Shown in pieces: positions 777-50,700 of a DNA stretch of 64,000 nt. Each line of letters begins with the position of its first letter. Positions within the stretch are counted from its first letter, which is position 1. The notes under the pieces were generated by a model, which ran no database searches, was not told the origin of the DNA, and worked only from the letters and a program-made list of their open reading frames with translations. The stretch spans positions 6,091 to 70,090 of the forward strand of contig MGGJ01000012.1 of the NCBI GenBank assembly GCA_001792345.1, written 5' to 3'. The position numbers and the translations under genes were made by a program. The stretch comes from Candidatus Woesebacteria bacterium RIFCSPHIGHO2_01_FULL_39_32. GTDB lineage: Bacteria > Patescibacteriota > Microgenomatia > UBA8517.

Positions 777-1316
777 TCAGGGAACTGGGGAAAGAATTGT
801 TTGAGAGGATCTCCAAAATAAAAAGATAATAATACTTAAAATTGCTACAACAATTATTGTAATGATTATCAGCTTCGTTTTTTTGTCAATTTCTAATTTT
901 TGAGCTTCTCTAACTGGAGGAACTTGAGTTGGTTGATTTGCTGGTTGTAATATACTTGTTTCTAAAGCCATACTATCTCTCGCGACTCTTACCACAGGTG
1001 TTTCAGGAATATTTATTTCGCGAACCGGTCTATCTATTATTTTAAAATTCTCTTTTCTATCAATGAGTGAAATTTCTGATGGTTCTTGGAGTATCTTTTC
1101 TTCTATCTTTCTAATTCTAGGATGTGTTTCGGAAGCTCGTTCATATTTTCTTCCAAAAACAGAATCCAGATCATTCTTCTTAAAATATCTATGACCTCCC
1201 GGAGAGCGATAGGATTCAAGTTTTCTTTTTTTCTCCCATCGCCTCAAAGTATCTATTGAAACTCCTAGATATTCAGATGCTTGACCTATTGTCATTAAGT
1301 CGAGTTTGTCTGGCAT
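777..1316 (-). CDS. Membrane-anchored DNA-binding protein: N-terminal excisionase/MerR-like HTH (HTH_17-like), linker, C-terminal TM helix
   Basis: N-terminus MTIGQASEYLGVSIDTLRRWEKKRKLESYRSPGGHRYF is an excisionase-family HTH. C-terminus KLIIITIIVVAILSIIIFLFW is a TM helix. It is a paralog of the N-terminus of the 2526-aa giant protein (47714..55294). Confidence 0.6.
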   Translation of the reverse strand: MPDKLDLMTIGQASEYLGVSIDTLRRWEKKRKLESYRSPGGHRYFKKNDLDSVFGRKYERASETHPRIRKIEEKILQEPSEISLIDRKENFKIIDRPVREINIPETPVVRVARDSMALETSILQPANQPTQVPPVREAQKLEIDKKTKLIIITIIVVAILSIIIFLFWRSSQTILSPVP

Positions 1317-2081: not shown

Positions 2082-3890
2082 ATGTATCCGAGTCAAACTT
2101 CGTTGATTCCTGTTATAGTTTCTTTATCTAAATTCTTTATAGAAAATGGTTTTACATCAATACATAGGTGGTATCCATATTGGTATTTAGGCGTACCTTT
2201 TAGGTATTTAACCGGACCTGTTGTACCGCTATCAGTTTATCTATTAGATAGTGTTTTTACTCATACCTCACTATTTACAATAATTATTTATCTAACTCTT
2301 GCTAGTTTGTTAACCGGAATTGTAGGTTGGGCGATTTTAATTAACAAAATAAATAAAGGAAGGATGTTAGGTTTTGTTTTTGCTTTAATTTATGCAATAA
2401 TGCCGTGGAAATATTTTCAGGCATTTTACCTGGACGAGGCTTCATTTGTAATCGCAAGAAATTTTCTTCCCTTTTGTTTAATTTTAGTGTGGAATTTGTT
2501 GGGACGGAATAAAGCTAAAGAATTTATTTTTGCTTCCTTTAGTATTTCATTTTTGTTTCTAATTAACACAAGCATACTACCAATATTGATTGTCGGTTTA
2601 GTAACCGTCACTCTCGCAAAAAGTTTTGAAAAAAGTAGGATAAAGGGTTTGTTAGTTCAGCTTAAACTTCTGTCTTTTCTGGTCGTATCAAGCTTATTAT
2701 TAGTTACTTTCGTTTGGTATACGCCGAATTATTGGTGGACGATTTTAACCAACCCATCATTGGGTGGAAACCCGGTATATAGAGTAATCTATCAGCTTTT
2801 CAACTCACTCAGATTCGCTTTACCAATTTTTGTTGCTGTTTTTGTAGTCTACTTCAATTATAAATTTAAAGAAAAATTGAAAATATTTACATTAGTTTGG
2901 CTGGCTGTTTTTATCTTTTTGACAGTTTATAGAATGCTTCAGGATATTGATTTTTGGATGGATTGGACTAGCTGGTTTTTTGAAATAGAAATCGGTGTTA
3001 CATTAATTTTATCAATTTCGATTTATCCCATATTGAAAAGATTTATTTATAGGAATTTCAAATTAATTAAGGAGTCACAAATAGCAGATGATAAGACTAG
3101 CAATTTATCAATGAGACTTAATAAGTACTACCTACTTCTTATTTTAATTTTTTTACTTCCCTTTTACTTTGTTTGGCGGATTCACAAACTAGTGGGGACA
3201 CAAGAAGTATTTACAAATAAACCTCCTGAAATTATCAAAAGCGTCGAAAAGCTTTCCGAACTTGCGGGCGGTGAAAGAGTATTTATTTCGGGGTCAGGAG
3301 TTTTTTGGGCGAACTCTCTATATAATTTGAATCAGGTGCGGGGTGGGGTGGATAAGGTAAGCATCCACCCACTTTGGCAGCATGGTGCATATCAAATAAG
3401 AGAAGGAAATGACTCAGAACTTACCCGCTTATGGTTAAAAAGTTTGGGAGTAGAGTGGGTTTTGGTACACGGTGGAAGGTCTTCCGACTATTTTAAAGAT
3501 TTTAGTAATTTAGACAAATGGGATAAAGTGGGAGAGATGGCATGGGAAGGAAACGGGGATAGAATTTATAAAATAGTGGATTCAGGTTTGGTTTGGGGAG
3601 GTAATATTACTTTGAATCAATTACCTATAGCCCCACAGAGAGGGGATGATCTTAATGGACTTCAGCAATATATTCGTTTATTGGAGGAGAAATTACCTTA
3701 TGAATACAGTAATGCAAGAATTGAAATAGCAGATGTTTCAGATTTTGAGTTTATAATTGTACTTATCACCTTTGACAAAGGTTGGGAAGCATTTAACGAA
3801 AAAGGAAATAAATTGAATGTATTAAGAGATTCCTTCGGACACATGATAGTTGAAACGCTTAATTCTCAGAAGATATTCCTTCACTATTAA
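2082..3890 (+). CDS. Polytopic membrane protein with C-terminal soluble domain; putative GT-C-type glycosyltransferase
   Basis: About 12 hydrophobic segments in the first ~400 aa, then a hydrophilic ~200-aa domain. The N-terminal region resembles that of 9508..10827. Confidence 0.55.
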   Translation: MYPSQTSLIPVIVSLSKFFIENGFTSIHRWYPYWYLGVPFRYLTGPVVPLSVYLLDSVFTHTSLFTIIIYLTLASLLTGIVGWAILINKINKGRMLGFVFALIYAIMPWKYFQAFYLDEASFVIARNFLPFCLILVWNLLGRNKAKEFIFASFSISFLFLINTSILPILIVGLVTVTLAKSFEKSRIKGLLVQLKLLSFLVVSSLLLVTFVWYTPNYWWTILTNPSLGGNPVYRVIYQLFNSLRFALPIFVAVFVVYFNYKFKEKLKIFTLVWLAVFIFLTVYRMLQDIDFWMDWTSWFFEIEIGVTLILSISIYPILKRFIYRNFKLIKESQIADDKTSNLSMRLNKYYLLLILIFLLPFYFVWRIHKLVGTQEVFTNKPPEIIKSVEKLSELAGGERVFISGSGVFWANSLYNLNQVRGGVDKVSIHPLWQHGAYQIREGNDSELTRLWLKSLGVEWVLVHGGRSSDYFKDFSNLDKWDKVGEMAWEGNGDRIYKIVDSGLVWGGNITLNQLPIAPQRGDDLNGLQQYIRLLEEKLPYEYSNARIEIADVSDFEFIIVLITFDKGWEAFNEKGNKLNVLRDSFGHMIVETLNSQKIFLHY

Positions 3891-4352: not shown

Positions 4353-7300
4353 ATGAAGACAAAGTTAACTTCGGATAAAAGGTATGAATTAATTCAAAAA
4401 GCACTAAAGGGTGAACCTCTAAAATTGCTTTGCCAGGAATACGGTATTTCCACAGCTTTATTTAACAGATTGCTTCGGCGTTACGAACAATATGGTAAGA
4501 AAGGTTTGATTGCAGGGAAACCCGGAAGAAAAAGAAAATCAAGAGTTCCGAAGAAGATAGAATTCAGACCGCTTTCTCCGCATGAACGCTTACGAATTGT
4601 CGAAAACATTATAAATGAAGGCGAATCAGTTTCGGATGTTGCACGACAATATCAAACTTCAAGAAATACTATCTATAAATGGTTGAAAAGATACCGAGAA
4701 AGCAATAAAGAGAAAATATCGGCATTTGAGGACAAAATCCCCGAAGTTAGAAGATATTACCGCCAGTCTCCCGCCCTTTATCAGGATGCTGTTCTTTCTT
4801 TAGTCGCCAAACATCCCGAATTCGGCGTCAGAAAAATTGTATCTAATTTACCTCAAATAGGAGCTAAGCCGATTCTGGGTCACCATGGAGTTCAAAATAT
4901 TTTAAGAAGACAAGACCTTTCGACATATGAGCAAAGACTGGTTTACTCCCAAGCTAAAGAAACACCCGTAATCCGTGGAATTTCAGATTTGCTTACTTAT
5001 GTTGCGAGATTCTTTGCACTTCCATACGAGAGCAGAAGAAAAGTAATTCAAATCTTTTACACTTTTGCTTTTTCGGCGATTACAACAATTTTTATTTTAG
5101 GTTTAGGGAATTATATAGCCACTTCTTTTTCGAAGATTCCAGACGTAAATCCGATCGGTTACTTCTTTGCCACAATAGCTCTAGTCATGGGAGGATTATT
5201 CTTCCTTTACTCAATGAAGTATTTTCTGACTCTTGCTCTTGTTCTTTCGTATTCACAGACAGAGGCAAAAGGTGAAAGACAAGATCTAGGAGGTAAAAGA
5301 AATGGTTTTCTCTCCTGGATATTAGGATTAGGTAATGGAAACAATAATGGGATTTATCCAAACGCAAGATTGAGTCTGGAGAATGGAAAATCAGGTGTCA
5401 GCGGTCTTGAACCCAATCTTTCCCACATTAAACTAGATAGATACCCCTTCATATCAGTCCACATACCCTTATACAACGAAAAATATGTAGCCGAGCGTGT
5501 AGCCAAAGCAGTAACCAACTTTGAGTACGGATCAACCCACTCACCGCAAGACTATGAAGTAATCCTCTGTGACGATTCTACCGATGAAACAACGGCAATT
5601 ATCAGAAACTATATGGCAAAGCATCTTGCCAAAGGAGAACACTTACATACTATTGTTAACAAAGAAGAAGGTTGGGAACTAAGTAAAGTAGAGGTAAGAG
5701 CTGGAGTAACATTAAAACATTTACACCGTACTACAAGACAAGGTTTCAAGGGTGGCGCATTAAAACTGGCTCTTACCCTCTGTGACCCCCGTACAGAATT
5801 TGTAAGTATCTTTGACGCAGACTTTGTTCCATATCCGGATACCTTGGAGCTATTCCTAAAGTATTTCAAAGCAACAGCAGGAACCCTCGACTTCGCTCAG
5901 GACAAGGTGGCACTGAGGCAATCTAACATAGCGGCAGTCCAGGGATACCAATGGCACGTATTAAATAAATCCGAAAACTGGATCACAAGGGGAGTAAGAA
6001 GTGAATATGCAGGAAGCTATGTAATTGAGAGGAGTGGTCAGGAAATATACGGAGGTTTAAAACATATTTCAGGTGCAGTCTACCTTATCAGAAAAGACGT
6101 TTTAGATGAAGTAGGCTGGGAAACATCAATAACCGAAGATTATGAATTAACACTAAAACTATACGAGAAAGGTTACAAAGTAGTCTACACTCCTTATATC
6201 CAAGCACCGGCTGAGTGTGTCTCAACCCTTAAAAGACTCATCAGACAAAGAATGAGATGGGCAGAAGGCCACAGCCATAATGTGAGGAAGATGTTTGGTA
6301 GGTTAATGTTTGGACGTTGGGAAGAGATTGGTACTAATAATCCGGCCTTTGCAAATGATCGAATTACTAATTACTCTAATTATTCTAAACAAGCACCAAG
6401 CACCAATGACAAAATTGGAAAATTGGGTATTGGGAATTCTTTAGATCAATTAGAAATTAGAAATTTACAAAAGAAGTTCATTCCCTCTCCTCTTACTCTT
6501 TCTGAAAAACTAGAATTTGCCTACAATGCTCCTTACTACCTCCAAGCCTTCTTCTTCCTTATTGGTACCATCTCTTGGTTAATATCAGAAACTATATTCA
6601 AAACATCTCTACCATTCTGGAGTCAGCTTTGGGGATGGAGCCTAGTATTAACTAACATGCTAGCTTTACCTTTAATGAACTCAGTGGGCTTATTTTTGGA
6701 AGAGAGCGAGGAAAAAGACTATGGAGGCATATTATCATTTATTGTCCTATCCTACATTGTCGTACCCTTCCAAGCCTATGCATCAGTAAAAGGTTTTCTT
6801 GAACACGAAGAAGGAACATGGTTTAGAACTCCTAAAACAGGAAGGATTACAGACATCTTCACAAGAGGACGCTTCTACAGATTCATTTCTGGAATACTTC
6901 CAAGGCGTGCAGAACAAGTTGTCAACAGCCAGTTGTCAGTAGCCACTAACTATATTTCTTTAGCTACAGCAAATAACAGATTTGATAAAGGCGACATGAT
7001 AAGTAGTAATAAAACTAAGATCAGATGGGTTGGAAAAGTAACATTTGTTTTTTCTTTAATAGCAACCCTAATTACATATCAGACTGTGATTCTTGATTAC
7101 CAAGGAAGGTTGGAAGGACCTGCCAATATTTTAAATGGTAGACAAGCTAGTTTGTCAAGCAGCAAGAAAGTTTTTTCAAGTGCGGAAAATCCAAGATTCA
7201 CTCTGAGCTTAAAGAATAAAAAAGTGAAGAGTACATCAATATTTAGGAGATCTACAATCTATGCTGCACAGAAAGACAGCATAGATGTCGATGTATATTA

Positions 7301-8942
7301 TTTGGATCGAAGGGCTGATCTGCCGGTTGAAATTAAACGCAAAGATGACAATATTTATGATATTGAGATAGGAAATAAAGACAATCTTTCCCCTGGTGTT
7401 TACAACCTTGTTGTAAAAGGTACAACATTGGGTGATGAATTTGAAGTCGAAAAGAAATTTAGTTGGGGTGTTCTGGCATTTAACACTACTAAAAGTGTAT
7501 ATGAACCGGGTGAACGGATAAAAATGGGTGTTGGTGTTGTTGATGACGCAGGAAGAACTATATGTGATGCGAAGGTCAACCTGTTTATTACGGTTCCTTC
7601 GGAGGGAAAGACTTATGAACTTTCAACCAATAACGGATTGCTGCGTCAAAGCGGGGAATGTTTGCGGGATAGCATTACAAATAAGGCTGATTATGAGGCA
7701 GAGTTTACGGCCAGGAGTGTTGAGGAAACTTATTCAGTACTACTGGAAGCAGAAAGCTATAATGGTAAAAAATCGGTAGAAGAAAGCATAGTTATTCGTG
7801 ACAACTTACCCTTTATTGTTGAGAGGGTTTCTTATCCGACCAGAATTTACCCACCGGTAAGCTATCCTGTTAAATTAAAAATAGTAGCAAATCAAGATTT
7901 TGAAGGGAGTATTATCGAGAGTTTTCCGAATAGCGAGTTTGTGGTTTATGAAGTAGGGGAAGGCGGAGAAAGAAAAGAAAATAAAATTGTCTGGAAAGTC
8001 AATCTAAGAAAAGGCGAGACTTACGAGTTAGATTACACGCTTGGCTTTCCTATGATATCTCCCGCCTTTTATTTAATCGGGCCTCTAACTTTTGTCGAGA
8101 GCGAAAAGATGATTTTTAGGGAGGAAAAACCTTGGCAAGTGGCGGCTGATTCCATAACGTTTCAGGAACTTGATTCAGGTGTAATCGAAAGCTCTACCGC
8201 GACTATTACGTCCGTGACGACAGCCACCAATTCAACGGCAGTCAACAATCATTTATATTTAGCTGTAGTGACTACAAAAGGTAATAGATCAGTAGATAGT
8301 GTTTCGGGATTGGGTTTAAGCTGGAGCCTAGTTGATAGTCAGTGCGGAGACCGTCAACAGACTAATTTGGCAGTATTTAAAGCTCTCGGAAGCCCTTCGG
8401 GAGATGGTGCGGTTACAGCGAACTTAAACGGTGGTACAGCTTATTCCGGAGGGGCTACCATCGGAGTGTATCGTTATAGTGGCGTAGATATTGCAAGCCC
8501 GATCGGAAATACTGAAAAAGCAAATACGGGTGGTGTTGGGGCGTCGGCAGGAGTTTGTGATACTACAGGAACTGACACGAACAGTTACAGTTTTTCAACC
8601 CTTGATACGTCACAAGCCAACTCCATGGTTTTTTCTGCAGCCTCAAATCGTACTAGAACGCACACCGAAGGGACTAACTACAACGAACGGGGGGATTTTA
8701 GAACCGGAAGTTCAGGAGATTCAGCCGCCCAGGCAGTACAGGATCAAATTTTTGCCAGTCAAACAACAAACCTTACAGTAGACGGGACATGGAGCGGTGT
8801 TGTTGATTGGGCGGTTGTTGCAATCGAGATTAAAACACCCGAAAACTTACTGCTTTTGACCTTGCTTTCGCCGGTTTTGTTCATAAAACTTAAGTCTATA
8901 AAAAAGAGGAAAAAAGGATTGAAAAAATCAAAAAAGGACTAA
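4353..8942 (+). CDS. Multidomain fusion: N-terminal double HTH (transposase/sigma-like), TM, processive family-2 glycosyltransferase (D, DxD, ED, QxxRW), TM bundle, ~700-aa extracellular domain, C-terminal hydrophobic+polybasic sorting-signal-like tail
   Basis: HTH: LLCQEYGISTALFNRLLRRY and SVSDVARQYQTSRNTIYKWLKRY. GT2: VHIPLYNE, ILCDDSTDET, FDADFVPYPD, QRMRWAEGH. C-terminus: IKTPENLLLLTLLSPVLFIKLKSIKKRKKGLKKSKKD. Confidence 0.75.
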   Translation: MKTKLTSDKRYELIQKALKGEPLKLLCQEYGISTALFNRLLRRYEQYGKKGLIAGKPGRKRKSRVPKKIEFRPLSPHERLRIVENIINEGESVSDVARQYQTSRNTIYKWLKRYRESNKEKISAFEDKIPEVRRYYRQSPALYQDAVLSLVAKHPEFGVRKIVSNLPQIGAKPILGHHGVQNILRRQDLSTYEQRLVYSQAKETPVIRGISDLLTYVARFFALPYESRRKVIQIFYTFAFSAITTIFILGLGNYIATSFSKIPDVNPIGYFFATIALVMGGLFFLYSMKYFLTLALVLSYSQTEAKGERQDLGGKRNGFLSWILGLGNGNNNGIYPNARLSLENGKSGVSGLEPNLSHIKLDRYPFISVHIPLYNEKYVAERVAKAVTNFEYGSTHSPQDYEVILCDDSTDETTAIIRNYMAKHLAKGEHLHTIVNKEEGWELSKVEVRAGVTLKHLHRTTRQGFKGGALKLALTLCDPRTEFVSIFDADFVPYPDTLELFLKYFKATAGTLDFAQDKVALRQSNIAAVQGYQWHVLNKSENWITRGVRSEYAGSYVIERSGQEIYGGLKHISGAVYLIRKDVLDEVGWETSITEDYELTLKLYEKGYKVVYTPYIQAPAECVSTLKRLIRQRMRWAEGHSHNVRKMFGRLMFGRWEEIGTNNPAFANDRITNYSNYSKQAPSTNDKIGKLGIGNSLDQLEIRNLQKKFIPSPLTLSEKLEFAYNAPYYLQAFFFLIGTISWLISETIFKTSLPFWSQLWGWSLVLTNMLALPLMNSVGLFLEESEEKDYGGILSFIVLSYIVVPFQAYASVKGFLEHEEGTWFRTPKTGRITDIFTRGRFYRFISGILPRRAEQVVNSQLSVATNYISLATANNRFDKGDMISSNKTKIRWVGKVTFVFSLIATLITYQTVILDYQGRLEGPANILNGRQASLSSSKKVFSSAENPRFTLSLKNKKVKSTSIFRRSTIYAAQKDSIDVDVYYLDRRADLPVEIKRKDDNIYDIEIGNKDNLSPGVYNLVVKGTTLGDEFEVEKKFSWGVLAFNTTKSVYEPGERIKMGVGVVDDAGRTICDAKVNLFITVPSEGKTYELSTNNGLLRQSGECLRDSITNKADYEAEFTARSVEETYSVLLEAESYNGKKSVEESIVIRDNLPFIVERVSYPTRIYPPVSYPVKLKIVANQDFEGSIIESFPNSEFVVYEVGEGGERKENKIVWKVNLRKGETYELDYTLGFPMISPAFYLIGPLTFVESEKMIFREEKPWQVAADSITFQELDSGVIESSTATITSVTTATNSTAVNNHLYLAVVTTKGNRSVDSVSGLGLSWSLVDSQCGDRQQTNLAVFKALGSPSGDGAVTANLNGGTAYSGGATIGVYRYSGVDIASPIGNTEKANTGGVGASAGVCDTTGTDTNSYSFSTLDTSQANSMVFSAASNRTRTHTEGTNYNERGDFRTGSSGDSAAQAVQDQIFASQTTNLTVDGTWSGVVDWAVVAIEIKTPENLLLLTLLSPVLFIKLKSIKKRKKGLKKSKKD

Positions 8943-8943
8943 T

Positions 8944-9486
8944 ATGAGTAGAAAGGACCTTATCAGATCAATCTTAGCAATAGTCGTTATCACTTTATTG
9001 GTAATGCCTCTGGTACTGACCTTTAACGAGATTCTTACAAAGGTCTTTGAGAAATTTACCCTCTATAATTTGCTTGAGAATTTCTGGGTTCCTATTCAAG
9101 TGCGTATCGTTGGTCTTGTGGTTAGATCATTTGATCTTAGTTATATTCCTATCAAGGGGGGAATGATAGTGAACGGTATTGAAATGAAAATGACTTGGAA
9201 TTGTTTGGGCTGGCAGTCCATTCTTCTTTTTTCGATATCGGCAATCCTTGGTTTGTCGGGTTCAAAAGCAACTTTCTTTTCGAAATTTCAAACTTTATTT
9301 CTTGGCCTATTTTTTCTATTTTGGTTGAATATTGCCAGGATAACGACAACTGTACTTTTGGCGGTTTACTCAATGCCTATATTTAGAATTGTATATCATG
9401 ATTTATTTGCAGCGATATTGACAATATTTTTTCTTATTTTCTTTTGGTGGTTTTCTTACTCTTTTCTTTTGACTGAAAAAATCTGA
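8944..9486 (+). CDS. Small polytopic membrane protein, candidate miniature exosortase/archaeosortase-family transpeptidase
   Basis: 180 aa with ~5 TM segments. Cys in TWNCLGWQS, an N-x-x-R motif (LNIARI) and a His (VYHD) recall the exosortase Cys/Arg motifs. It lies 2 nt downstream of a protein ending in a TM+polybasic tail. Confidence 0.45.
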   Translation: MSRKDLIRSILAIVVITLLVMPLVLTFNEILTKVFEKFTLYNLLENFWVPIQVRIVGLVVRSFDLSYIPIKGGMIVNGIEMKMTWNCLGWQSILLFSISAILGLSGSKATFFSKFQTLFLGLFFLFWLNIARITTTVLLAVYSMPIFRIVYHDLFAAILTIFFLIFFWWFSYSFLLTEKI

Positions 9487-9507
9487 TAAATATATAATGT
9501 TATAGAA

Positions 9508-10827
9508 ATGGATGCTGGAATTCCCAAAGAGTCAGAGACAATTGCTTCCAAAAGAAGCAAACGTCTGGCGGAGAAAATTGGACGATCAGGTGTATCAGGC
9601 GTGGTCTTTCGCAGCTGGAAGAACAACCGTTTTACCGAAACATTTGCCGTAGTGATTCTATTAATTGTTAACCTGTATAGTATTTATCCCTTTTTCGGAA
9701 CATCGGCATCAGATGCTTTTTTTTCTGGACCTGTGATTCCAATATTGGCAAAAGCATTTGTGATACTTAGTGGACATTCTTTCTCCAATTCTGTTCAGAT
9801 AATCAATATAGTTTTTTTCTTAGGTTTTCCTATTTCACTTTATCTTTTTATAAGAAGTATCACCGATAGGAAATTAATAAGTGTACTTGCCGTTTCTATT
9901 GCAAGTCTGACTACGTATCCTTTTGCCGAAACCAGAATTTCTACATCACTTTTGGGTGTTGATGCAGCCCATATTGCAAGCCTAACAATTATCCCAATAG
10001 CTTTAATAGGGCTTTTGAATTTTGTAAAGAGGGGGGGAGTGAACAATTTAATGATTGCAGTTGTTTTTGCGGCCTTAGTTGCACTTACTTCACCTTTCGG
10101 ATTTCTGACATATGCAATATTTGCAGGAATAATTTCTTTTTCTGAGCTGTTATTGGGTGGAGGGAGGCTAAAGCTCGCGAGATTTCTTACAATACTAATT
10201 GTATCTGGAGGTTTGACATCCTTTTGGTACAATCCTTCATTTTTCTTTTGGATGATTATTGGACCATTGGGGGAAAACATACGTTTTACAGTATCGAAAT
10301 TATTTCCGATTACTTTTTTTACACTGCCGCTACTTGGTGCTTTTGGCTACTTGATGTTTGACAGGAAACCAACACTTCAACCTCTTTTTATAGCAAGTTT
10401 TTTCAGCATAACCTATGCAATTATTTCTTTGGCGGGAGGTGGTATCTTTCCCTCGCATCCATCAAGGTATGTACCGGAATTCGGAGTATCAATGTCTTTA
10501 ATATTGAGTATCGTGATTGTTAAATTATCGGATTTTATTAAACTGGACGAACGGATCAGTTTAGCAAAGACGACCCGAAGTGTTTTTTCAAACACATTTT
10601 TGGTTCTTGTATTTTTTCTTTTGGGATTTTCTATCGTATCAGAGAGATCAAAATTTGAAATGGAAAAGAAAGACGTTCTTGGTGTTTGGGATGAAGTGGA
10701 GAAGGGGGAAATTTGGGAATCGAGAGAGAAATTCTCGGGAGGACATTCAGTTTGGGGATATAGTGTTACCGGATTGACTATTATTGGTTTAGGAGTTTTA
10801 GTCAGAAATTCTAAGAAGAGAATGTGA
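9508..10827 (+). CDS. Polytopic membrane protein (about 11 TM), putative GT-C-like glycosyltransferase
   Basis: Hydrophobicity pattern. The N-terminal region is similar to 2082..3890 (YPFFGTSASDAFFSGPVIP vs YLGVPFRYLTGPVVP). Confidence 0.55.
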   Translation: MDAGIPKESETIASKRSKRLAEKIGRSGVSGVVFRSWKNNRFTETFAVVILLIVNLYSIYPFFGTSASDAFFSGPVIPILAKAFVILSGHSFSNSVQIINIVFFLGFPISLYLFIRSITDRKLISVLAVSIASLTTYPFAETRISTSLLGVDAAHIASLTIIPIALIGLLNFVKRGGVNNLMIAVVFAALVALTSPFGFLTYAIFAGIISFSELLLGGGRLKLARFLTILIVSGGLTSFWYNPSFFFWMIIGPLGENIRFTVSKLFPITFFTLPLLGAFGYLMFDRKPTLQPLFIASFFSITYAIISLAGGGIFPSHPSRYVPEFGVSMSLILSIVIVKLSDFIKLDERISLAKTTRSVFSNTFLVLVFFLLGFSIVSERSKFEMEKKDVLGVWDEVEKGEIWESREKFSGGHSVWGYSVTGLTIIGLGVLVRNSKKRM

Positions 10828-42655: not shown

Positions 42656-45600
42656 TTAAGGGCTTCCTTCATTTGGTCCGAAGCGGAGTGCTCCTTCGTT
42701 GTAGACATTTCTTACCTGTTGGGCAGAAAGATCATAGTTGAAAATCTTGACATCGTCTATTTGACCATTGAAGTCATTATTTAAATAGCCACCAGCGCCT
42801 GCGTTCCCAAAGGATAGATCATCATTATTGACCATAGATGCGGTAGTGGGATCGGTTTGGTATCTGACACGTAGACCATCAATGTAAAGAGTGACAACAT
42901 CTTCTAAAACATCTCTTACTCCAACAATCAGATGCCAATTACCGTCGTTAACAGTTGACGTTCCACAAAGAGTCCGGGCAGCACCATCGTTCATGAGTAT
43001 ACAGGGTTGTTCGGAGGTATTTACCTCGAGATTAAAAGGATAGACCCCGATACCAGCAGCTTTGGCCACAATTGTACCGGAGTTAGTAGTATAGTTGGTC
43101 GTGGTTTTGAACCAGGCACTGACCGAATAGCTATGAGTTGTTTCTCCCAAATCGATTCCCGATCCTTCGGTAATTCTGACATTGTCGTCGGTTCCGTCAA
43201 AAGTAAGCCCAGTGTTACGTTTTCCGGTAGTCCAAGTGGTATTGCCGTTAAATGTTTGTGAATGGTAAGCGTTTCCACTTGAATCATTAGTGGTTGAGCC
43301 GGTATTTTCATCCATTTTCCACCATCCTTGTGGAGCACCGCGATTATATTCCCAAGAGATCTGAGGTTGAGTGCGGGCGTAGTTATAAATTCGAACATCA
43401 TCCAATTTGCCGCCTAAGTAATTGGTTGGTGTTGGATGTCTGGCCAGGTCGATTGAGTTGAGAGTATCGATATCGATAGTGCCTGATATAGTCAGAGTAT
43501 CTGTCTGTAATACGCCATCCACGTACATTTTGAGGATGCTGCCGTCATAAGTTCCCGCGACATGATGCCAACCGGAGGTAGCTGCAGTATTAGACGCAAT
43601 TACCCGAACCGTTGACTCTGTCCCATCTAGCCTGATTTGGAACACATATTTGTTATCAGAATTTCGCTTTCTTAATAAGGTAGTGCCCGCGTTTGAAGAA
43701 TTCATCCGATTGTAAAATTCGTGAGAGACACCATCCCCTGGATTATTCAGATCAACCCAAGCTTCAATGGTTATATATTGAGTGTTAAGAGAAGACGGTG
43801 TGCCTAGGGATATATAGTCGTCAGATCCATCAAAATCTAACGCACTTCCAAACTTACCGGGTACCCAATCACTATTGGTCATACTGCCATTCATTGTTCC
43901 GATGTTACTGTTACCCGAAGAATCATTAACATCGGTTGTGCCGGTATTTTCGTCAAATTTATAATGAGCGATAGGTGCAGTGCAAGCTGAACTTTGTCCG
44001 GGAGTACAATACTCGTTTGATGATGACCAGGTTGCATTACTGCTTGAGTCTGTTGATGTTGCTCCCCAAACAGCACTTGAGCTTTGGTTATATAGAACTC
44101 TTACTTGATCGGAAGTTAATGCTGAGCGGAATATTTGAACCTCGTCAATATCACCAATAAATTCATCCGTTCCTCCGGCTGATGCATCTTGTGCACCAAC
44201 AACTATAACGTCTGAATTTGATAAGTCTCCGGTAGCTGCTAAATTGGCATCGAAGCCAACTAATTGGCCATCGATGAATAACTCGATTTTTGAAGTACCT
44301 GTTTTGACGGCAACAGCGTGATGCCAGGTATTGTCATAGTAGTCCGTTGTGTTGCCGGCTGTATCTGCGGGTGTCCAAGTGCCGTCTGAATCAATTCCGA
44401 AAGTAATATAACCATTGGTTTGGGTTGCATATATGGCATAGCCGGTTCCGGTTTCTTTATCGATAAGGTACTCATTACCGGCTGAGGGATTAGTTGTACT
44501 GTCTGATTTAAACCAAAGACTTATTGAAAAATCCTGAGAAGCCGTAAAGTCAAAATCGGAATCATCCGCTCTTGACAACCATACATTTCCATTACCGTCC
44601 CAAGCTTTCCCATACTTACCTGAGTTGGTCCACCTTTGAGTAAGTTGGGTTAAACTATTTGTATTTCCGGATGAATCGTTGACGGTTGTACCATATCCTT
44701 CGTCAAATTTCCAATGGGCTACGGCACTGCCAACGGGGGACCCAGGAGCCGGGTGCCCGGCATTCATGTCTTCGATGATTTGGGCAGAGGTGCGAGCGTA
44801 ACGATATACCAGTACGTTGTCCACTTGACCAATAATACCGTTAGAATTATCGCTTATATGGAATGCCGTAGCATTGGAGTGATCGCCCGTATGGGTTTGA
44901 TTTGTTACTTTGTCAAACACCCCGTCGATATAATGGGAAATAGTTGGAGTAGCAGCACTTCCATTATAAACGCATGTGACGAAATGCCAATTGCCATCCG
45001 CGATGGTAGCATTACTGCCGAAGGTATCGGTTCCTGCAGCACTATCAGAAAGATCGCAACCTAACTTCCCTGTTGAAGTGAAACGCATCCGGTATCCGGG
45101 TGTGGTCCCTGCTAAATCTTTCCAAATAATAAGTTGGCTTGTAGCTGCATTGTCTGATTTTACCCAAGCTTCTAAAGTAAAATCGTCAGTACCGGCAAAA
45201 TCTAAAGACCCGTCTCCCGGATCGGGAACATTGACATAACTTGTCGCAATTGTAGAAAGTCCGCTGCCGATTTTCCCTGGTGCCCAGACAGGCCCGCCCG
45301 TGAGAGTACCGGTATTATCTTTTTCTCCGGAATCATTAGCGGCAGTTCCTGTGTTTTCGTCCAGCTTCCAATAACTAACAGGTCCCTGAGCCCAGTTATA
45401 GAGTCTCTCGACTTCCACGGGTTGCAAGACGCGGTTGTAGACTCTGACTTCATCCATCGTCCCATCAAAGTAGTTGCTTCCCTGCCTTCCAATATAGATT
45501 TGATTTGCAGTAATTGCTTGACTTGAAGAAACCGTAACGAGTTGCCAGGTATCCTGGGCGATTGTGCTTGATTCAACTCCGTTTACGTAAATCTTAGGAT

Positions 45601-46741
45601 TTGTGAAACCGGTTGCGGAGAGTATACCTGATGAAGAAGTCACATGTGCACCGCTATGTAAGCTAAGGTAATAGTTTGTAGTGCTATCGGGGTTTACCCA
45701 GAAAGAAACGGATTTGGCGCCCTGAATAGTGGTTGCGGTTGAAAAGTATTGGGTTGATGCAGGAACGTGCTCAGAGCCTCTGCCAAATTTTGCCCCCACA
45801 AAAGTAGTTGTACCGTTATTAGTTAAAGTGATTCCATTTCCGGACGAATCGGTTGCATTGCCGCTAGTTTCATCTAATTTCCAATAACCAACAAGGCCAT
45901 CAGAGAGGTAGGATTGATCAGGTCCGAATGAGGCGGAGGTTCCCCTAGAGGGAGTTTCACCGACATAGTCTGCTTTGATTTCTGTTGCTGTTCTTGCGGT
46001 TCTTAATACTTTAACTTCATCAATAAATCCACTCCATCCGTCGCTCGCAGCGTTATATATACCTATGTAGAAATTATCATCATTTGAGGCATCTGTTCCT
46101 GCCAAAGATGCATCAGTTCCTACCGATATAGCATTTATATATAGTGTAATTGAGGAAGTACCATTTTTAACTGCAGCAAGATGATGCCACTTGTTATCAT
46201 CGTAGGCAGAAGCACTTGTAACTGAATCGGACGGGAATGAAGTATTATTATTATCAATTCCAAATACAATTTGACCCGATGAGTTCATTGTTATTTTGTA
46301 GCCACCATCAGCACCTGTTGCCTCCTCTTTTGAGATCAAAGTTCTGGTACCGCTTGTAATATCAGGAGTTCTGAACCACAGTTCGACAGTTACGGTGTCA
46401 CTTGCTGCCATATCGAGGCTTGCACTATCGGAGTAGGAAACATAATCTCCTGTTCCGTCAAAATAAAGACATTTGCCAAATTTACAAAGATCTTCTGTTT
46501 TCCAAACGGCATTGGTTATTGTTCCTGCGGTTACGGTTGAGTTGGTATCGCTGGCTGAGGCTCCATAGCCTTCGTCAAAGCCAATATAAATATCTGCAGC
46601 TTGAACTTCCTTGACAGGGAAGAAGAAAAGCCTGAGGGAAGTTAATAGGACCAATATGACTAATAAGACGGATAATGCCTTGCGGCGGCGGGTGGCGGTA
46701 AGCCAGCGTATAAGTCTTATATGTCGTATGCGACTTATCAT
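42656..46741 (-). CDS. Giant (1361 aa) secreted/surface protein of tandem LamG/concanavalin-A-like lectin domains
   Basis: N-terminal signal-anchor. At least six repeats ending in a LamG-type block (DEVKVLRTA, DEVRVYNRVL, DNVLVYRYA, DEVQIFRSAL, DDVRIYNYA, DDVKIFNY), each preceded by a Gly/Thr/Ser/Asn-rich jelly-roll-like region. Confidence 0.7.
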   Translation of the reverse strand: MISRIRHIRLIRWLTATRRRKALSVLLVILVLLTSLRLFFFPVKEVQAADIYIGFDEGYGASASDTNSTVTAGTITNAVWKTEDLCKFGKCLYFDGTGDYVSYSDSASLDMAASDTVTVELWFRTPDITSGTRTLISKEEATGADGGYKITMNSSGQIVFGIDNNNTSFPSDSVTSASAYDDNKWHHLAAVKNGTSSITLYINAISVGTDASLAGTDASNDDNFYIGIYNAASDGWSGFIDEVKVLRTARTATEIKADYVGETPSRGTSASFGPDQSYLSDGLVGYWKLDETSGNATDSSGNGITLTNNGTTTFVGAKFGRGSEHVPASTQYFSTATTIQGAKSVSFWVNPDSTTNYYLSLHSGAHVTSSSGILSATGFTNPKIYVNGVESSTIAQDTWQLVTVSSSQAITANQIYIGRQGSNYFDGTMDEVRVYNRVLQPVEVERLYNWAQGPVSYWKLDENTGTAANDSGEKDNTGTLTGGPVWAPGKIGSGLSTIATSYVNVPDPGDGSLDFAGTDDFTLEAWVKSDNAATSQLIIWKDLAGTTPGYRMRFTSTGKLGCDLSDSAAGTDTFGSNATIADGNWHFVTCVYNGSAATPTISHYIDGVFDKVTNQTHTGDHSNATAFHISDNSNGIIGQVDNVLVYRYARTSAQIIEDMNAGHPAPGSPVGSAVAHWKFDEGYGTTVNDSSGNTNSLTQLTQRWTNSGKYGKAWDGNGNVWLSRADDSDFDFTASQDFSISLWFKSDSTTNPSAGNEYLIDKETGTGYAIYATQTNGYITFGIDSDGTWTPADTAGNTTDYYDNTWHHAVAVKTGTSKIELFIDGQLVGFDANLAATGDLSNSDVIVVGAQDASAGGTDEFIGDIDEVQIFRSALTSDQVRVLYNQSSSAVWGATSTDSSSNATWSSSNEYCTPGQSSACTAPIAHYKFDENTGTTDVNDSSGNSNIGTMNGSMTNSDWVPGKFGSALDFDGSDDYISLGTPSSLNTQYITIEAWVDLNNPGDGVSHEFYNRMNSSNAGTTLLRKRNSDNKYVFQIRLDGTESTVRVIASNTAATSGWHHVAGTYDGSILKMYVDGVLQTDTLTISGTIDIDTLNSIDLARHPTPTNYLGGKLDDVRIYNYARTQPQISWEYNRGAPQGWWKMDENTGSTTNDSSGNAYHSQTFNGNTTWTTGKRNTGLTFDGTDDNVRITEGSGIDLGETTHSYSVSAWFKTTTNYTTNSGTIVAKAAGIGVYPFNLEVNTSEQPCILMNDGAARTLCGTSTVNDGNWHLIVGVRDVLEDVVTLYIDGLRVRYQTDPTTASMVNNDDLSFGNAGAGGYLNNDFNGQIDDVKIFNYDLSAQQVRNVYNEGALRFGPNEGSP

Positions 46742-47713: not shown

Positions 47714-50700
47714 TTACCGCGATGCGGTAAGATCCACTATCCACCAGTTGAAAGTCACGTCAGTTACTGTTGGTAAGTCAAAGCCGACTACAATCTCTCC
47801 ATCTTTCTGCTCTTTTATATAAAGCACGTTATTCTGAGTTGGGGAAGTGGGAGTAACAAACACCAAAGAATTTGATTTAACGTTTGGATTTTTTATTGTT
47901 ACAACACTTGATCTGGAAGGAACTTTGGCGATGCCCGCTGAGGCCTCACTATGATAGATCATATCAGACAATATAGCGGAGGAAGTTGCATTTGGATCAT
48001 CTTTTATTGTAAGTCTATCGGTGGTTACTCCTTTAAACTCTGCAGAACCAGTAGCTGAGACTGATGCGACCTCGTCACCTAAGCTATTTGTTACACTCAA
48101 TAACTTTCCGAAATTTGTCAAATTCTCACTGTCGGCATCAAGCCTTAAACTCTTTGCAGAAAGTGTACCGCCGATTGTGACATCTCCTGCAATTTGTATA
48201 TTTCCAAGTGTGTCAATCTGGACTAAACCTGCCATTAAGTAAAGAGGTTGTGAAGCAGAAGATTGTATTGATAGGGGAGCATTTATGGTGTCAATATTGG
48301 TAGCAAGTAGCTGGTAGCTAGTATCTAGGGAAGATTGAATTACTAAATCAGAACCAACTACTATAGAATGCGTAACTGAGAGAGAATCAATTGCGGCTGT
48401 ATTGGTAACATAAAGATTTTCCAGCGCGAGCTCATTTAGGGATGCACTACCTGTTGCTGATGTCGGCCAACTTTGAGATTCCGCAAGAAGAGTTTGATTT
48501 GCTTCTACTTCGGCTAAAAGTCCTTCAATTTCTTCTCGAGTTAGGGAGTTTTGAGAGACAACCTCGTCAGCAATTACTTTTCCAACTCGTAGTTCGCCTG
48601 CGATTGAGGCCTCATTTGTTTTCAGACTATCGCTTGCTAACTTTCCCGAGAAAGTTGCGCTTCGGGCGCTAATATCACCCTCAGTGTAAACATTTCCGAT
48701 TTCATCTACCGAAGCAACCGTTTTTCCACTAGAGTTTTTGAGAAGTAACTTTCCAAACGATGGTTGATTTGGATCACCAATTTGAATTGCAATATCTTTT
48801 TCTCCATCCAAAGGTTTTATTTCTTTAGTTAGTACTTGGGGAGAAACCAAACCTACTTTTACCAGCATTCTGTCAACTGTACCTTGGAAGGCGGTAAATC
48901 CATCAGTAATTATTTTTGTAAGACCGGAGAGTTTATCAATTAAATTTCCATCTTTGTCAATAAGCTTTTGGTAGCCTTCATTTTGCATATCCTCAGCAAG
49001 TTTTATATCTCCGGAATCAGTGAGAGTCCCTAGTGGTTCAAACCAAGAGTTATTAATAAATACAGTTATTAAATCTTTTCCTGATCCTGGGCTCCATGGT
49101 TCAAGGGCCTGACCTATGACTCTTCCATTACTTTGGGATTTCATTGCAAGGCCAGGTTCCGGACTTGTTGTTAAATAATCCCCAGGAATAATTGGACCAG
49201 AATTTTGAGAGATTTTAACCGGTACGCGACCTGCAAGAGCAATGGGGTATCCTGGGGCCTCTCCAAGTACAATTCCGGGATTAGTTGATACAACTCCAAC
49301 AACTCTTGATTCATAGGCTGAAGCGCTTTTTATGACGTGTTCGGGATTTTCAGGATCAACTTTGACTACCTCTCCAGGTGAAAGAGACTGGATGCTGGGG
49401 AAAAACTCAGCAATATCAACCCCATCGGTATTGTCGCTGTTGTTTGCTGAGGCATCCATCCATCCGAGTAAATTCCAGTTTGTACCGTCGTATATTAAAA
49501 ATAACTGGTCTCCTGTGGCAAAGGCAGTAATGTCGGTCGTTCCACAATTTATATTTGAAGAAGTACAGTCAAGGTCAAAATTTGCAGCAGTGGATATCTC
49601 TATATATATAATTTGCCCCGCTGTACCATTTGTGAAGTTTGTAACTAATCTATTGGTACTATTGTTTTCCAAGAAGTGTGACCCTCCCGCGACAGATGGG
49701 GTAACACTATCGCCAAGTGTTTGTTGTGAATCCAGCGCAAAAGCACCTTGGACTATCATTTGACCCGTTGCGGGAAGGTCAAAGACTATGTCACCCGAAT
49801 TGTAAGTTTTAAGTGTAAGGTTATTACTTTCAAAAGATTCACCGGCACGAACGGTCAAAGGACCGTAGCTGTCAATTGTTGATGCGGTTTGATTAGTAAA
49901 AATTAAATCATATGCTATTGAGACATCTCCTGCGGCTGTGAATTCGTGGGGGAGCGCGGAGGTTATTTTGGCTGTATCAACGCTGAAAAGCTCAGATGAA
50001 TTATCGTAAAGCGCAAAAAGATTTCCGGTTAGGTCTCCATATTGACCAATGTTTACTTTGACCAAATCACCGCTTGCCGTTGCCCATGTTGTTGGAGACC
50101 AGTCAAAAAGTCCCAAGTTTCCTGAGGTTAACGAAGTAGCCGTTGAATTAACTTTAAGAAGCGATCCGGTTGTCCAGGTATTAGAACTTCCCGTATTAAG
50201 ATTAAGCAGTGTACCTGTCGTTAAAGTGGAGGATGTTATACCAAATACATCGCCTGTTGTTGTTACATCAGAAGTTATATCGGCAACTCCACCTGCGGCG
50301 GTTTCAATTCCATAAGCTTGGAAGCTTGCAGAAGCGGTTGCTGTTCCACCGACCAATAAGTCCCATGTGGAGTTTCCAGGAGAAAGCATAACACTGCTTC
50401 CCAATTGCCAGTAATTTGTTCCACTACCCGTATCGTCCGTTCCACAGTCCCATTCAAAATTTGTGTTATCCCATTCTAAAATACCTCCTGCTGCACATCC
50501 TCGAATTAGGGTTAGCTCACCATTTCCGTCGAATTCCAATCCTGATGTAGATGAAGTTGTTGAACCGTCGGCAGCAGTTGTATCAAGGTCGACTTGTAAT
50601 ACGTTGGACGCTACCTCCAGACCACTTCCATTGAAGTCGTTAATGCTATCACCGGATATTACAATAAAATTATCACCCAAACTAATGCCATTGAAAAGTT

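Follow-up and report, generated by a model that had tools for sequence, protein, structure and literature searches.

Among the closest described relatives of the system reported here are the PEP-CTERM/exosortase systems of Gram-negative bacteria (EpsH, XrtA), in which one enzyme serves many scattered, Sec-exported target proteins. Exosortases were predicted in 2006 (PMC1569441). In a 64,000-nucleotide stretch of contig MGGJ01000012.1 from Candidatus Woesebacteria bacterium RIFCSPHIGHO2_01_FULL_39_32 (hereafter the window; G+C content 38.6%), a sorting-type tail closes a protein of 1529 amino acids (aa), and the next gene, 2 nucleotides further on, encodes a membrane protein of 180 aa. The smaller protein is a predicted member of the exosortase/archaeosortase superfamily. 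It is probably a minimal intramembrane Cys endopeptidase/transpeptidase of that family, dedicated to the [VI/T]PE[N/K]-helix-polybasic signal of the protein encoded upstream.

The pair resembles the PEP-CTERM/exosortase system in its enzyme superfamily (TIGR04178), in the position of Cys-X-Gly, Asn-X-X-Arg and His at the outer ends of consecutive transmembrane (TM) helices, in a tripartite signal whose Pro-Glu core abuts a helix followed by a basic cluster, and in its association with polysaccharide-synthesis genes. The source organism, a candidate phyla radiation (CPR) bacterium, presumably has a single membrane, unlike the Gram-negative hosts of PEP-CTERM systems. The motif also differs, PEP being replaced by [VI]PE[NK] and a PFLP-type helix, and adjacent one-to-one pairs stand in place of one enzyme with scattered targets. 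Moreover, the target is itself a polytopic synthase of glycosyltransferase family 2 (GT2) rather than a Sec-exported protein. While EpsH has at least eight TM helices (PMC1569441), the 180-aa protein, here called mini-exosortase, has about four.

The homologous archaeal enzyme ArtA, which acts in the PGF-CTERM system of Haloferax volcanii, offers the best mechanistic template. A separate ArtA paper reportedly deals with a tripartite signal that does not lie at the C-terminus, and this parallels the tail-enzyme fusions described below. Experimental support exists for an active-site Cys in ArtA, for removal of the C-terminal helix and for covalent attachment of a lipid, probably an ethanolamine lipid (PMC7157517). 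ArtA differs from the mini-exosortase in its PGF signal, its many substrates, the location of its gene away from those of its substrates and its length of about 300 aa. The ArtA model TIGR04125 matched one of 46 aligned members of the present family, and that one weakly.

Two other members of the superfamily, XrtM (TIGR04300, 150 positions) and pacearchaeosortase (NF033505, 167 positions), are compact like the mini-exosortase. Against the 180-aa protein these models scored 10.3 bits (cut-off 125) and 12.4 bits (cut-off 80), respectively, with weak matches in 20/46 and 1/46 family members; judged by profile score, the protein belongs to a different subfamily from both. The original prediction had stressed how small the protein is for such an enzyme. 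It is indeed small, but short exosortase-family models already exist in NCBIfam and small size alone is not new. Further, XrtG (TIGR03110) and its GT2 glycosyltransferase (TIGR03111) likewise link an exosortase gene to a GT2 gene in the absence of an outer membrane. XrtG matched one of the 46 enzymes (E = 0.0012), and TIGR03111 scored 19.5 bits (cut-off 364) against the GT2 domain in the window. The XrtG system differs from the present one, in which the GT2 protein itself bears the sorting-type tail.

The gene pair and the 180-aa enzyme

The features of the gene pair and the catalytic-type residues of the enzyme are as follows.

4353..8942, plus strand: predicted substrate gene, 1529 aa (continuous open reading frame (ORF), matches to helix-turn-helix (HTH) and GT2 models, hydropathy)
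8944..9486, plus strand: predicted exosortase-family protein of 180 aa, the mini-exosortase (TIGR04178 match, conserved Cys/Arg/His, AlphaFold2 model)
9202-9204, plus strand: Cys87 codon (180-aa ORF)
9328-9330, plus strand: Asn129 codon (180-aa ORF)
9337-9339, plus strand: Arg132 codon (180-aa ORF)
9397-9399, plus strand: His152 codon (180-aa ORF)

The first ORF ends with a stop codon at 8940-8942 and the second begins 2 nucleotides after it, with the sequence AAGGA just 5' of its ATG, inside the 3' end of the 1529-aa gene. The short gap and the AAGGA together suggest that the two genes are translationally coupled. The arrangement put forward in the original prediction, a TPEN-TM-polybasic tail with the 180-aa membrane-protein gene 2 nucleotides beyond it, is exact in coordinates and in sequence. 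A profile search of the six-frame translation returned 8944..9486 alone, and a second exosortase-like gene in the window was rejected on that basis.

The 180-aa protein scored 28.9 bits (cut-off 23; E = 1e-6) with TIGR04178, the exosortase/archaeosortase signature of NCBIfam, its residues 83-170 being aligned to profile positions 3-91 of 97. The same model matched all 46 aligned homologues, with a best E-value of 7.6e-11. The suspected kinship with exosortases was borne out by these matches, and membership of the superfamily is predicted with confidence. In the NCBIfam scan no named subfamily reached its curated cut-off with the 180-aa protein; XrtM, CrtC, ArtC, XrtX, XrtV, XrtG, XrtH, XrtK, XrtS, XrtY, ArtA, ArtE and pacearchaeosortase were compared. 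Across the 46 members, other exosortase models gave weak sub-threshold matches (best E-value 9.4e-9). A Pfam scan of the 180-aa protein, PF09721 included, gave no match.

In EpsH, three consecutive TM helices carry the motifs Cys-X-Gly, Asn-X-X-Arg and His-X-X-X-Gly at their outer ends (PMC1569441), and the Cys, Arg and His motifs of exosortases have been restated since (bioRxiv 10.1101/2023.06.07.544157). The 180-aa protein contains TWNC87LGW, LN129IAR132I and H152, with C87-L-G89, N129-I-A-R132 and H152 as counterparts of the EpsH motifs. Trp85, Asn86, Cys87, Gly89, Trp90, Gln91, Ser92 and His152 are invariant in the 46-homologue alignment, while Asn129 and Arg132 are each kept in 45 of the 46. 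The residues that the original prediction had picked out as catalytic-type motifs are therefore conserved.

An AlphaFold2 (AF2) model of the 180-aa protein, built on the homologue alignment, has a mean predicted local distance difference test score (pLDDT) of 88.8. It comprises helices at residues 3-36 and 39-61, a three-strand meander at 67-82 and helices at 85-104, 111-142 and 145-175, that is, four long helices and an outer helix/beta-hairpin subdomain. Cys87, Arg132 and His152 lie near the starts or ends of the last three helices. Hydropathy analysis gave four TM segments (9-27, 87-105, 115-133 and 149-167). Positive charges are found at the N-terminus and in the loop 106-115, a distribution that fits an outward-facing catalytic site. 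The simplest topology would have the N-terminus inside the cell, the helix/hairpin subdomain outside and Cys87, Arg132 and His152 near the outer face, with the geometry of the active site read from secondary structure and charge rather than from measured distances. No relative with a solved structure turned up in the PDB, whether by sequence or by fold search.

A search of 5.8 billion proteins yielded 136 homologues; nearly all of the 120 listed are 176-225 aa long, and the named hosts were Woesebacteria and Curtissbacteria. When 1.84 billion cluster representatives were searched exhaustively with a profile, 175 matched at E <= 1e-10 and 512 at E <= 0.001, and the enzyme family is thus modest in size. 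Several homologues have already been automatically labelled 'exosortase/archaeosortase family protein' by JGI, and the 180-aa protein itself is annotated as a hypothetical protein in its source genome.

The C-terminal tail signal

The C-terminus of the 1529-aa protein reads ...VDWAVVAIEIK-TPEN-LLLLTLLSPVLFI-KLKSIKKRKKGLKKSKKD, its last 39 residues beginning at nucleotide 8823. The parts of the signal are as follows.

8835-8846, plus strand: signature motif TPEN, directly abutting the hydrophobic segment (sequence)
8847-8885, plus strand: hydrophobic tail helix LLLLTLLSPVLFI, 13 aa (sequence, hydropathy)
8886-8939, plus strand: polybasic cytoplasmic end KLKSIKKRKKGLKKSKKD (sequence)

The signature motif is known to abut the TM helix in exosortase- and archaeosortase-type signals (bioRxiv 10.1101/2023.06.07.544157), and the window tail similarly joins motif and helix without a spacer. 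Related tails were collected with a pattern (P-[ED]-x, 10-20 uncharged residues and a K/R cluster within the last 55 residues), and 55 of them were aligned on the PE of that pattern. Position -1 was occupied by Val in 35, Ile in 12 and Thr in 2, and position +1 by Asn in 20, Lys in 13, Tyr in 7 and Arg in 7. Pro was found at +12 in 39 of the 55 and at +15 in 36; the window tail shares the Pro at +12. A cluster of four to six Lys/Arg stands at the same place in the homologous tails, although the search pattern itself demanded it; conservation beyond the pattern consists of Val/Ile at -1, Asn/Lys at +1 and Pro at +12 and +15. The consensus is roughly V-P-E-N-L-W-L-F-L-G-L-A-P-F-L-P-x-L-L-K-K-L-K-K-R-K, and the family-wide signature can be written as [VI]PE[NKRY], some 15 hydrophobic residues (often with PFLP) and Lys/Arg. 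TPEN, which the original prediction took as the motif, is present in the window tail but is rare in the family, and TPEN...SPVLF...KLKSIKKRKK is a recognisable variant of the consensus.

No named CTERM model of NCBIfam (E <= 10) matched the window tail or seven homologous tails, although very short queries such as these fare badly under the HMMER filters. Faint matches (E about 0.1) were obtained to the C-termini of two PEP-CTERM protein families. The PEP-CTERM sorting domain (TIGR02595 and relatives) was rejected as the identity of the tail, as no curated model matched. Within the window, the 1529-aa protein is the sole carrier of a tail of this type among 47 stop-to-stop ORFs of at least 150 aa.

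Pairing of tail and enzyme in related loci

Relatives of the enzyme were located in 77 loci (855 kb in all) on contigs taken from one genome per species, the named hosts being Woese-, Curtiss-, Gottesman-, Levy-, Chisholm- and Nealsonbacteria and 'Patescibacteria group'. Among 1700 stop-to-stop ORFs the tail pattern picked out 58. Every one of these shared the strand of the exosortase-like gene, and 54 lay upstream of that gene. Tails ended 54 ORFs of at least 150 aa, and for 52 of these an exosortase-like gene followed downstream in the locus, at a median distance of 30 nucleotides and within 150 nucleotides in 37 of the 52.

Twenty-four loci negative for the pattern were re-inspected. Eight had clear tails that the pattern had missed (longer C-terminal extensions or a VDE variant), and nine were left out as unassessable, their enzyme gene lying less than 600 nucleotides from a contig end. 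A same-strand upstream tail protein was consequently present in 61 of 68 assessable loci. The pairing of tail and enzyme is more than chance. Absence of the tail from homologues of the upstream protein, or of both similarity to the enzyme family and conservation of its Cys/Arg, had been named beforehand as grounds for abandoning the proposal; the tail, the similarity and the conserved residues were all found.

At least 15 genomes contributed two or three loci each, and 11 loci hold two or three enzyme genes. A dedicated, single-substrate enzyme had been proposed. Each enzyme does lie beside its own target, but many genomes hold two to five enzyme/target pairs, and the dedication is to be understood pair by pair. 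The suggested CPR specificity likewise stands in part: as sampled, the system is confined to Microgenomates-type CPR bacteria, apart from a few unplaced metagenome-assembled genomes (MAGs). Many of the locus-bearing MAGs are titled 'uncultured Gammaproteobacteria' (L001, L004, L006, L007 and others), labels that look unreliable.

Natural enzyme-tail fusions

Among the cluster representatives, tail and enzyme are also joined in single polypeptides, and in both orders. In target-tail-enzyme fusions (P0193, 946 aa; P0211, 1227 aa; P0194), a GT2 synthase or outer domain is followed by (I/V)-(E/V)-VPEN, a helix, a basic linker and the exosortase domain. In enzyme-outer domain-tail fusions of 428-474 aa (P0173, P0182, P0184, P0188, P0205 and P0226), the exosortase domain is followed by a TM helix, a beta-sandwich of about 200 aa, PG[IM]VV[PSD]E, a helix and a basic end. 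In nine aligned proteins of the latter type, the Cys, Asn, Arg and His and the Val and Glu of the tail are invariant, while the tail Pro varies. Both types keep the Cys/Arg/His together with the tail Glu, and both architectures would be topologically consistent with an active site and a motif that face outwards. Fusion of this kind is a classical sign that two proteins are functionally linked, as is predicted here for enzyme and target.

One locus (L056, 5192..10600) is a chain of four overlapping genes in which each tail at once precedes an enzyme domain: GT2-outer domain-VPEK tail, enzyme-outer domain-VSEN tail, enzyme-outer domain-IEEE tail and a stand-alone enzyme. The MAG that carries it is labelled Bathyarchaeia; the family may extend past CPR bacteria, or the bin may be mislabelled. 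In another locus (L078, 5332..6708), the fused P0173 occurs alone, with no GT2 gene nearby and with a DeoC-like aldolase, an alcohol dehydrogenase and an Rce1-like protease as neighbours. P0173 may be a self-processing surface protein.

The predicted target protein

The 1529-aa protein is laid out as a cytoplasmic HTH region, two TM helices, a processive GT2 synthase, three TM helices, an outer domain and the sorting-type tail. Hydropathy placed its TM segments at aa 231-249, 268-286, 764-782, 792-810, 890-908 and 1498-1516. Its main parts are as follows.

4353..4982, plus strand: transposase-type HTH region, aa 1-210 (HTH_28, 2.9e-16; HTH_23, 1.1e-13; HTH_32)
5430..6302, plus strand: GT2 catalytic domain with processive beta-glycan synthase motifs (Pfam/NCBIfam matches)
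7077..8834, plus strand: predicted extracytoplasmic domain, aa 909-1494, about 590 aa (between TM 890-908 and the tail TM)
8139..8834, plus strand: module B, an unnamed domain of about 230 aa, aa ~1263-1494 (homology to repeats of type IX secretion system (T9SS) proteins)

The HTH region is IS481/IS3-like (IS481 N-terminal region, 4.5e-21) and has no DDE domain. The ENA gene call for the 4353..8942 ORF starts later and gives 1049 aa. An artefact of ORF calling was rejected as the origin of the HTH-GT2 fusion, which is kept in frame in about 15 divergent homologous ORFs. It is unusual for a polysaccharide synthase to bear a DNA-binding domain.

The GT2 domain matched Glyco_trans_2_3 (1.3e-16), PgaC/IcaA (2.5e-18) and CelA (7.6e-18), and Pfam GT2 families were above their cut-offs. 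It contains DDS407, DAD488, TED594 and QRMRW632, and Q[RQ]xRW and [TS]ED are kept in all 34 homologues that cover the domain. The equivalog models PgaC, CelA and NodC all scored far below their cut-offs against it. The upstream protein is thus a predicted processive GT2 synthase, of the cellulose, poly-N-acetylglucosamine or chitin-oligosaccharide type. The target is nearly always of this one kind, with an HTH domain, a processive GT2 synthase, a variable outer domain and a tail; about 50 of the 77 loci encode tail proteins that keep the HTH-TM-GT2-TM module (aa ~1/74-910), while the outer region varies.

With the Lys-rich C-terminus inside the cell, aa 909-1494 would be extracytoplasmic. The first part of this region, module A (aa ~933-1270), is MG2/immunoglobulin-like, with a weak MG2 match, and is common to other CPR proteins. 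Module B had no match in a Pfam scan. Its sequence identity to tandem repeats of proteins with T9SS C-terminal sorting domains (PF18962) is 41-50%. One such protein (P0271) has three copies of module B, each ending in VDWAV[IV]GLEIK, which indicates that TPEN starts right after the last strand of a folded domain. From these homologies, module B appears to be a cargo domain that serves two different C-terminal sorting systems.

Proposed mechanism and alternative explanations

Family membership, catalytic residues, signal, gene pairing, fusions and a consistent topology are established, and a mechanism modelled on ArtA can be proposed. The 1529-aa protein would insert so that its HTH and GT2 domains remain cytoplasmic and its outer domain of about 590 aa is tethered twice, by TM 890-908 at one end and by the tail helix at the other, with the Lys-rich end inside. 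TPEN would then sit at the outer membrane face, where Cys87, Arg132 and His152 would also lie, at the outer ends of three consecutive helices. Cys87 would attack in or beside TPEN, so that the tail helix is removed and an acyl-enzyme intermediate forms. This intermediate would be resolved either by water or by an acceptor with an amine or hydroxyl group, such as a glycan or, as has been proposed for ArtA, the headgroup of a membrane lipid. For ArtA, Cys173 is the active-site residue, with a thioester intermediate and an ethanolamine lipid as acceptor (PMC7157517). Cleavage would probably give the C-terminus a new attachment or bring about a conformational release rather than secretion. The fusions and the tight one-to-one linkage of the genes point to a reaction that is stoichiometric and possibly limited to a single turnover, or else to a complex that persists.

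Several observations weigh against dedicated processing of the tail by the mini-exosortase. Cleavage, the exact cut site and the acceptor are all things that we infer. The target is polytopic instead of a soluble Sec-exported protein, which makes the purpose of processing puzzling, and cleavage of the tail would not release the outer domain, since TM 890-908 still tethers it. The hydrophobic stretch of the window tail is short, and the Gly of the His-X-X-X-Gly motif is lost, Ala taking its place in the window protein. In seven assessable loci the exosortase-like gene lacks an upstream tail protein. An AF2 model of an enzyme-outer domain-tail fusion, made from a nine-sequence alignment, has a mean pLDDT of 65, and its tail (pLDDT below 50) is not confidently placed in the enzyme. 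Finally, one point in favour of a link between enzyme and tail, the correlated divergence of their sequences (Mantel r = 0.38, a value reached in 0 of 2000 permutations), could be explained by shared operon ancestry alone.

The main rival explanation assigns no catalysis to the pair: the tail would be a structural membrane anchor, and the 180-aa protein a non-catalytic, stoichiometric subunit of the synthase that binds the helix uncut. An analogy exists in the C-terminal TM anchor of BcsB, which packs against the cellulose synthase BcsA. Such an arrangement would sit well with TM 890-908, which keeps the target in the membrane whether cleaved or not, and with the one-to-one stoichiometry implied by the 2-nucleotide gap and the natural fusions, which is unusual for a turnover enzyme. 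However, among sequences that are 36-58% identical, Cys87 and His152 are invariant and Arg132 and Asn129 nearly so, and the catalytic residues are kept in the fused forms too. In addition, a strict [VI]PE at the edge of the membrane typifies a site that is recognised or cut, not a plain anchor. Because the catalytic residues are invariant, a purely structural role is considered unlikely. A bolder version of the processing mechanism, in which the mini-exosortase joins the C-terminus of the synthase outer domain covalently to the polysaccharide made by its own GT2 domain, or to the lipid-linked primer of that polysaccharide, is a long shot. If true, it would mean a protein-glycan conjugate at the cell surface, and it would reveal the long-sought exosortase acceptor and explain the link to polysaccharide loci.

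A general exosortase with many scattered substrates, as in XrtA/PEP-CTERM, would make adjacency to one substrate incidental. Three loci (L034, L054 and L075), each with two tail proteins near one enzyme gene, could be read in this way. Nevertheless, the tail counts, which cover the 64-kb window and 855 kb of flanks, fit it poorly: the window has its single tail, and essentially every tail in the 855 kb is just upstream of an exosortase-like gene, with none on the opposite strand. Several enzyme paralogues per genome, each with its own target, argue in the same direction, and this possibility is regarded as very unlikely. Chance resemblance, in which an ordinary small membrane protein happens to lie beside a protein ending in a TM helix, might be suspected from the missing PF09721 match and from an NCBIfam score merely 6 bits over the cut-off. 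It is effectively refuted by the TIGR04178 matches in every homologue, the tail-enzyme distances and the fusions, the catalytic motifs and the pairing being conserved as well. Dedicated processing of the adjacent signal by the mini-exosortase thus appears the most probable of these explanations.

Novelty and significance

The literature search found no paper linking exosortases with CPR or Patescibacteria, and no curated model or paper describing the enzyme subfamily or the signal was found in the searchable literature and models. As neither enzyme nor tail matches a named subfamily or CTERM model, the idea of a new variant of the sorting system held up. What is new with respect to known systems is the four-helix minimal enzyme, the VPE[NK]...PFLP signal, the adjacent or fused one-to-one pairing, the GT2 synthase as carrier and the confinement, as sampled, to Microgenomates-type CPR bacteria. 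The analysis identifies in these bacteria a previously unannotated surface-maturation system, in which an exosortase-family enzyme is physically tied to a processive glycan synthase.

The acceptor used by exosortases and the reason for their link to polysaccharide loci are open questions (bioRxiv 10.1101/2023.06.07.544157, PMC7157517, PMC1569441). At about 180 aa and four TM helices, the mini-exosortase is the smallest natural version found here. A two-gene module of one enzyme and one target, together with the single-chain fusions, would be convenient for reconstitution, for identification of the product by mass spectrometry and for structure determination.

Neighbouring genes

Two genes that flank the pair are conserved in related loci.

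2082..3890, plus strand: conserved upstream polytopic membrane protein, 602 aa, no Pfam/NCBIfam family (homologues in 33/77 loci)
9508..10827, plus strand: conserved downstream polytopic membrane protein, 439 aa, about 11 TM helices (homologues in 20/77 loci)

Pfam and NCBIfam scans assigned no family to the 439-aa protein. Among the 77 loci, its homologues are often encoded immediately 3' of the exosortase-like gene. Both flanking proteins match one common family of about 700 aa in related loci. A sigma-70-like site near consensus (TTGACT-18-TATAAT) is located at 9469-9498, just 5' of 9508..10827.

Glycan-synthesis genes are abundant in the wider window, including those for a GT4 glycosyltransferase, a nucleotidyl transferase, a carbamoyltransferase and a PTPS-related membrane protein. 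A 1361-aa protein with six Laminin_G_3 (ConA-like lectin) repeats (E = 7e-122) is encoded at 42656..46741 on the minus strand. It adjoins a giant protein of 2526 aa (47714..55294, minus strand) that has a MerR-type HTH (PF00376, HTH_17) at its extreme N-terminus, and it is part of a large region of surface-protein and glycan-synthesis genes. The same MerR-type HTH is N-terminal in a 179-aa protein with a C-terminal TM helix (777..1316, minus strand). Together with the HTH-GT2 protein, these examples suggest that cytoplasmic HTH domains on large envelope proteins are a recurring theme in the source genome.

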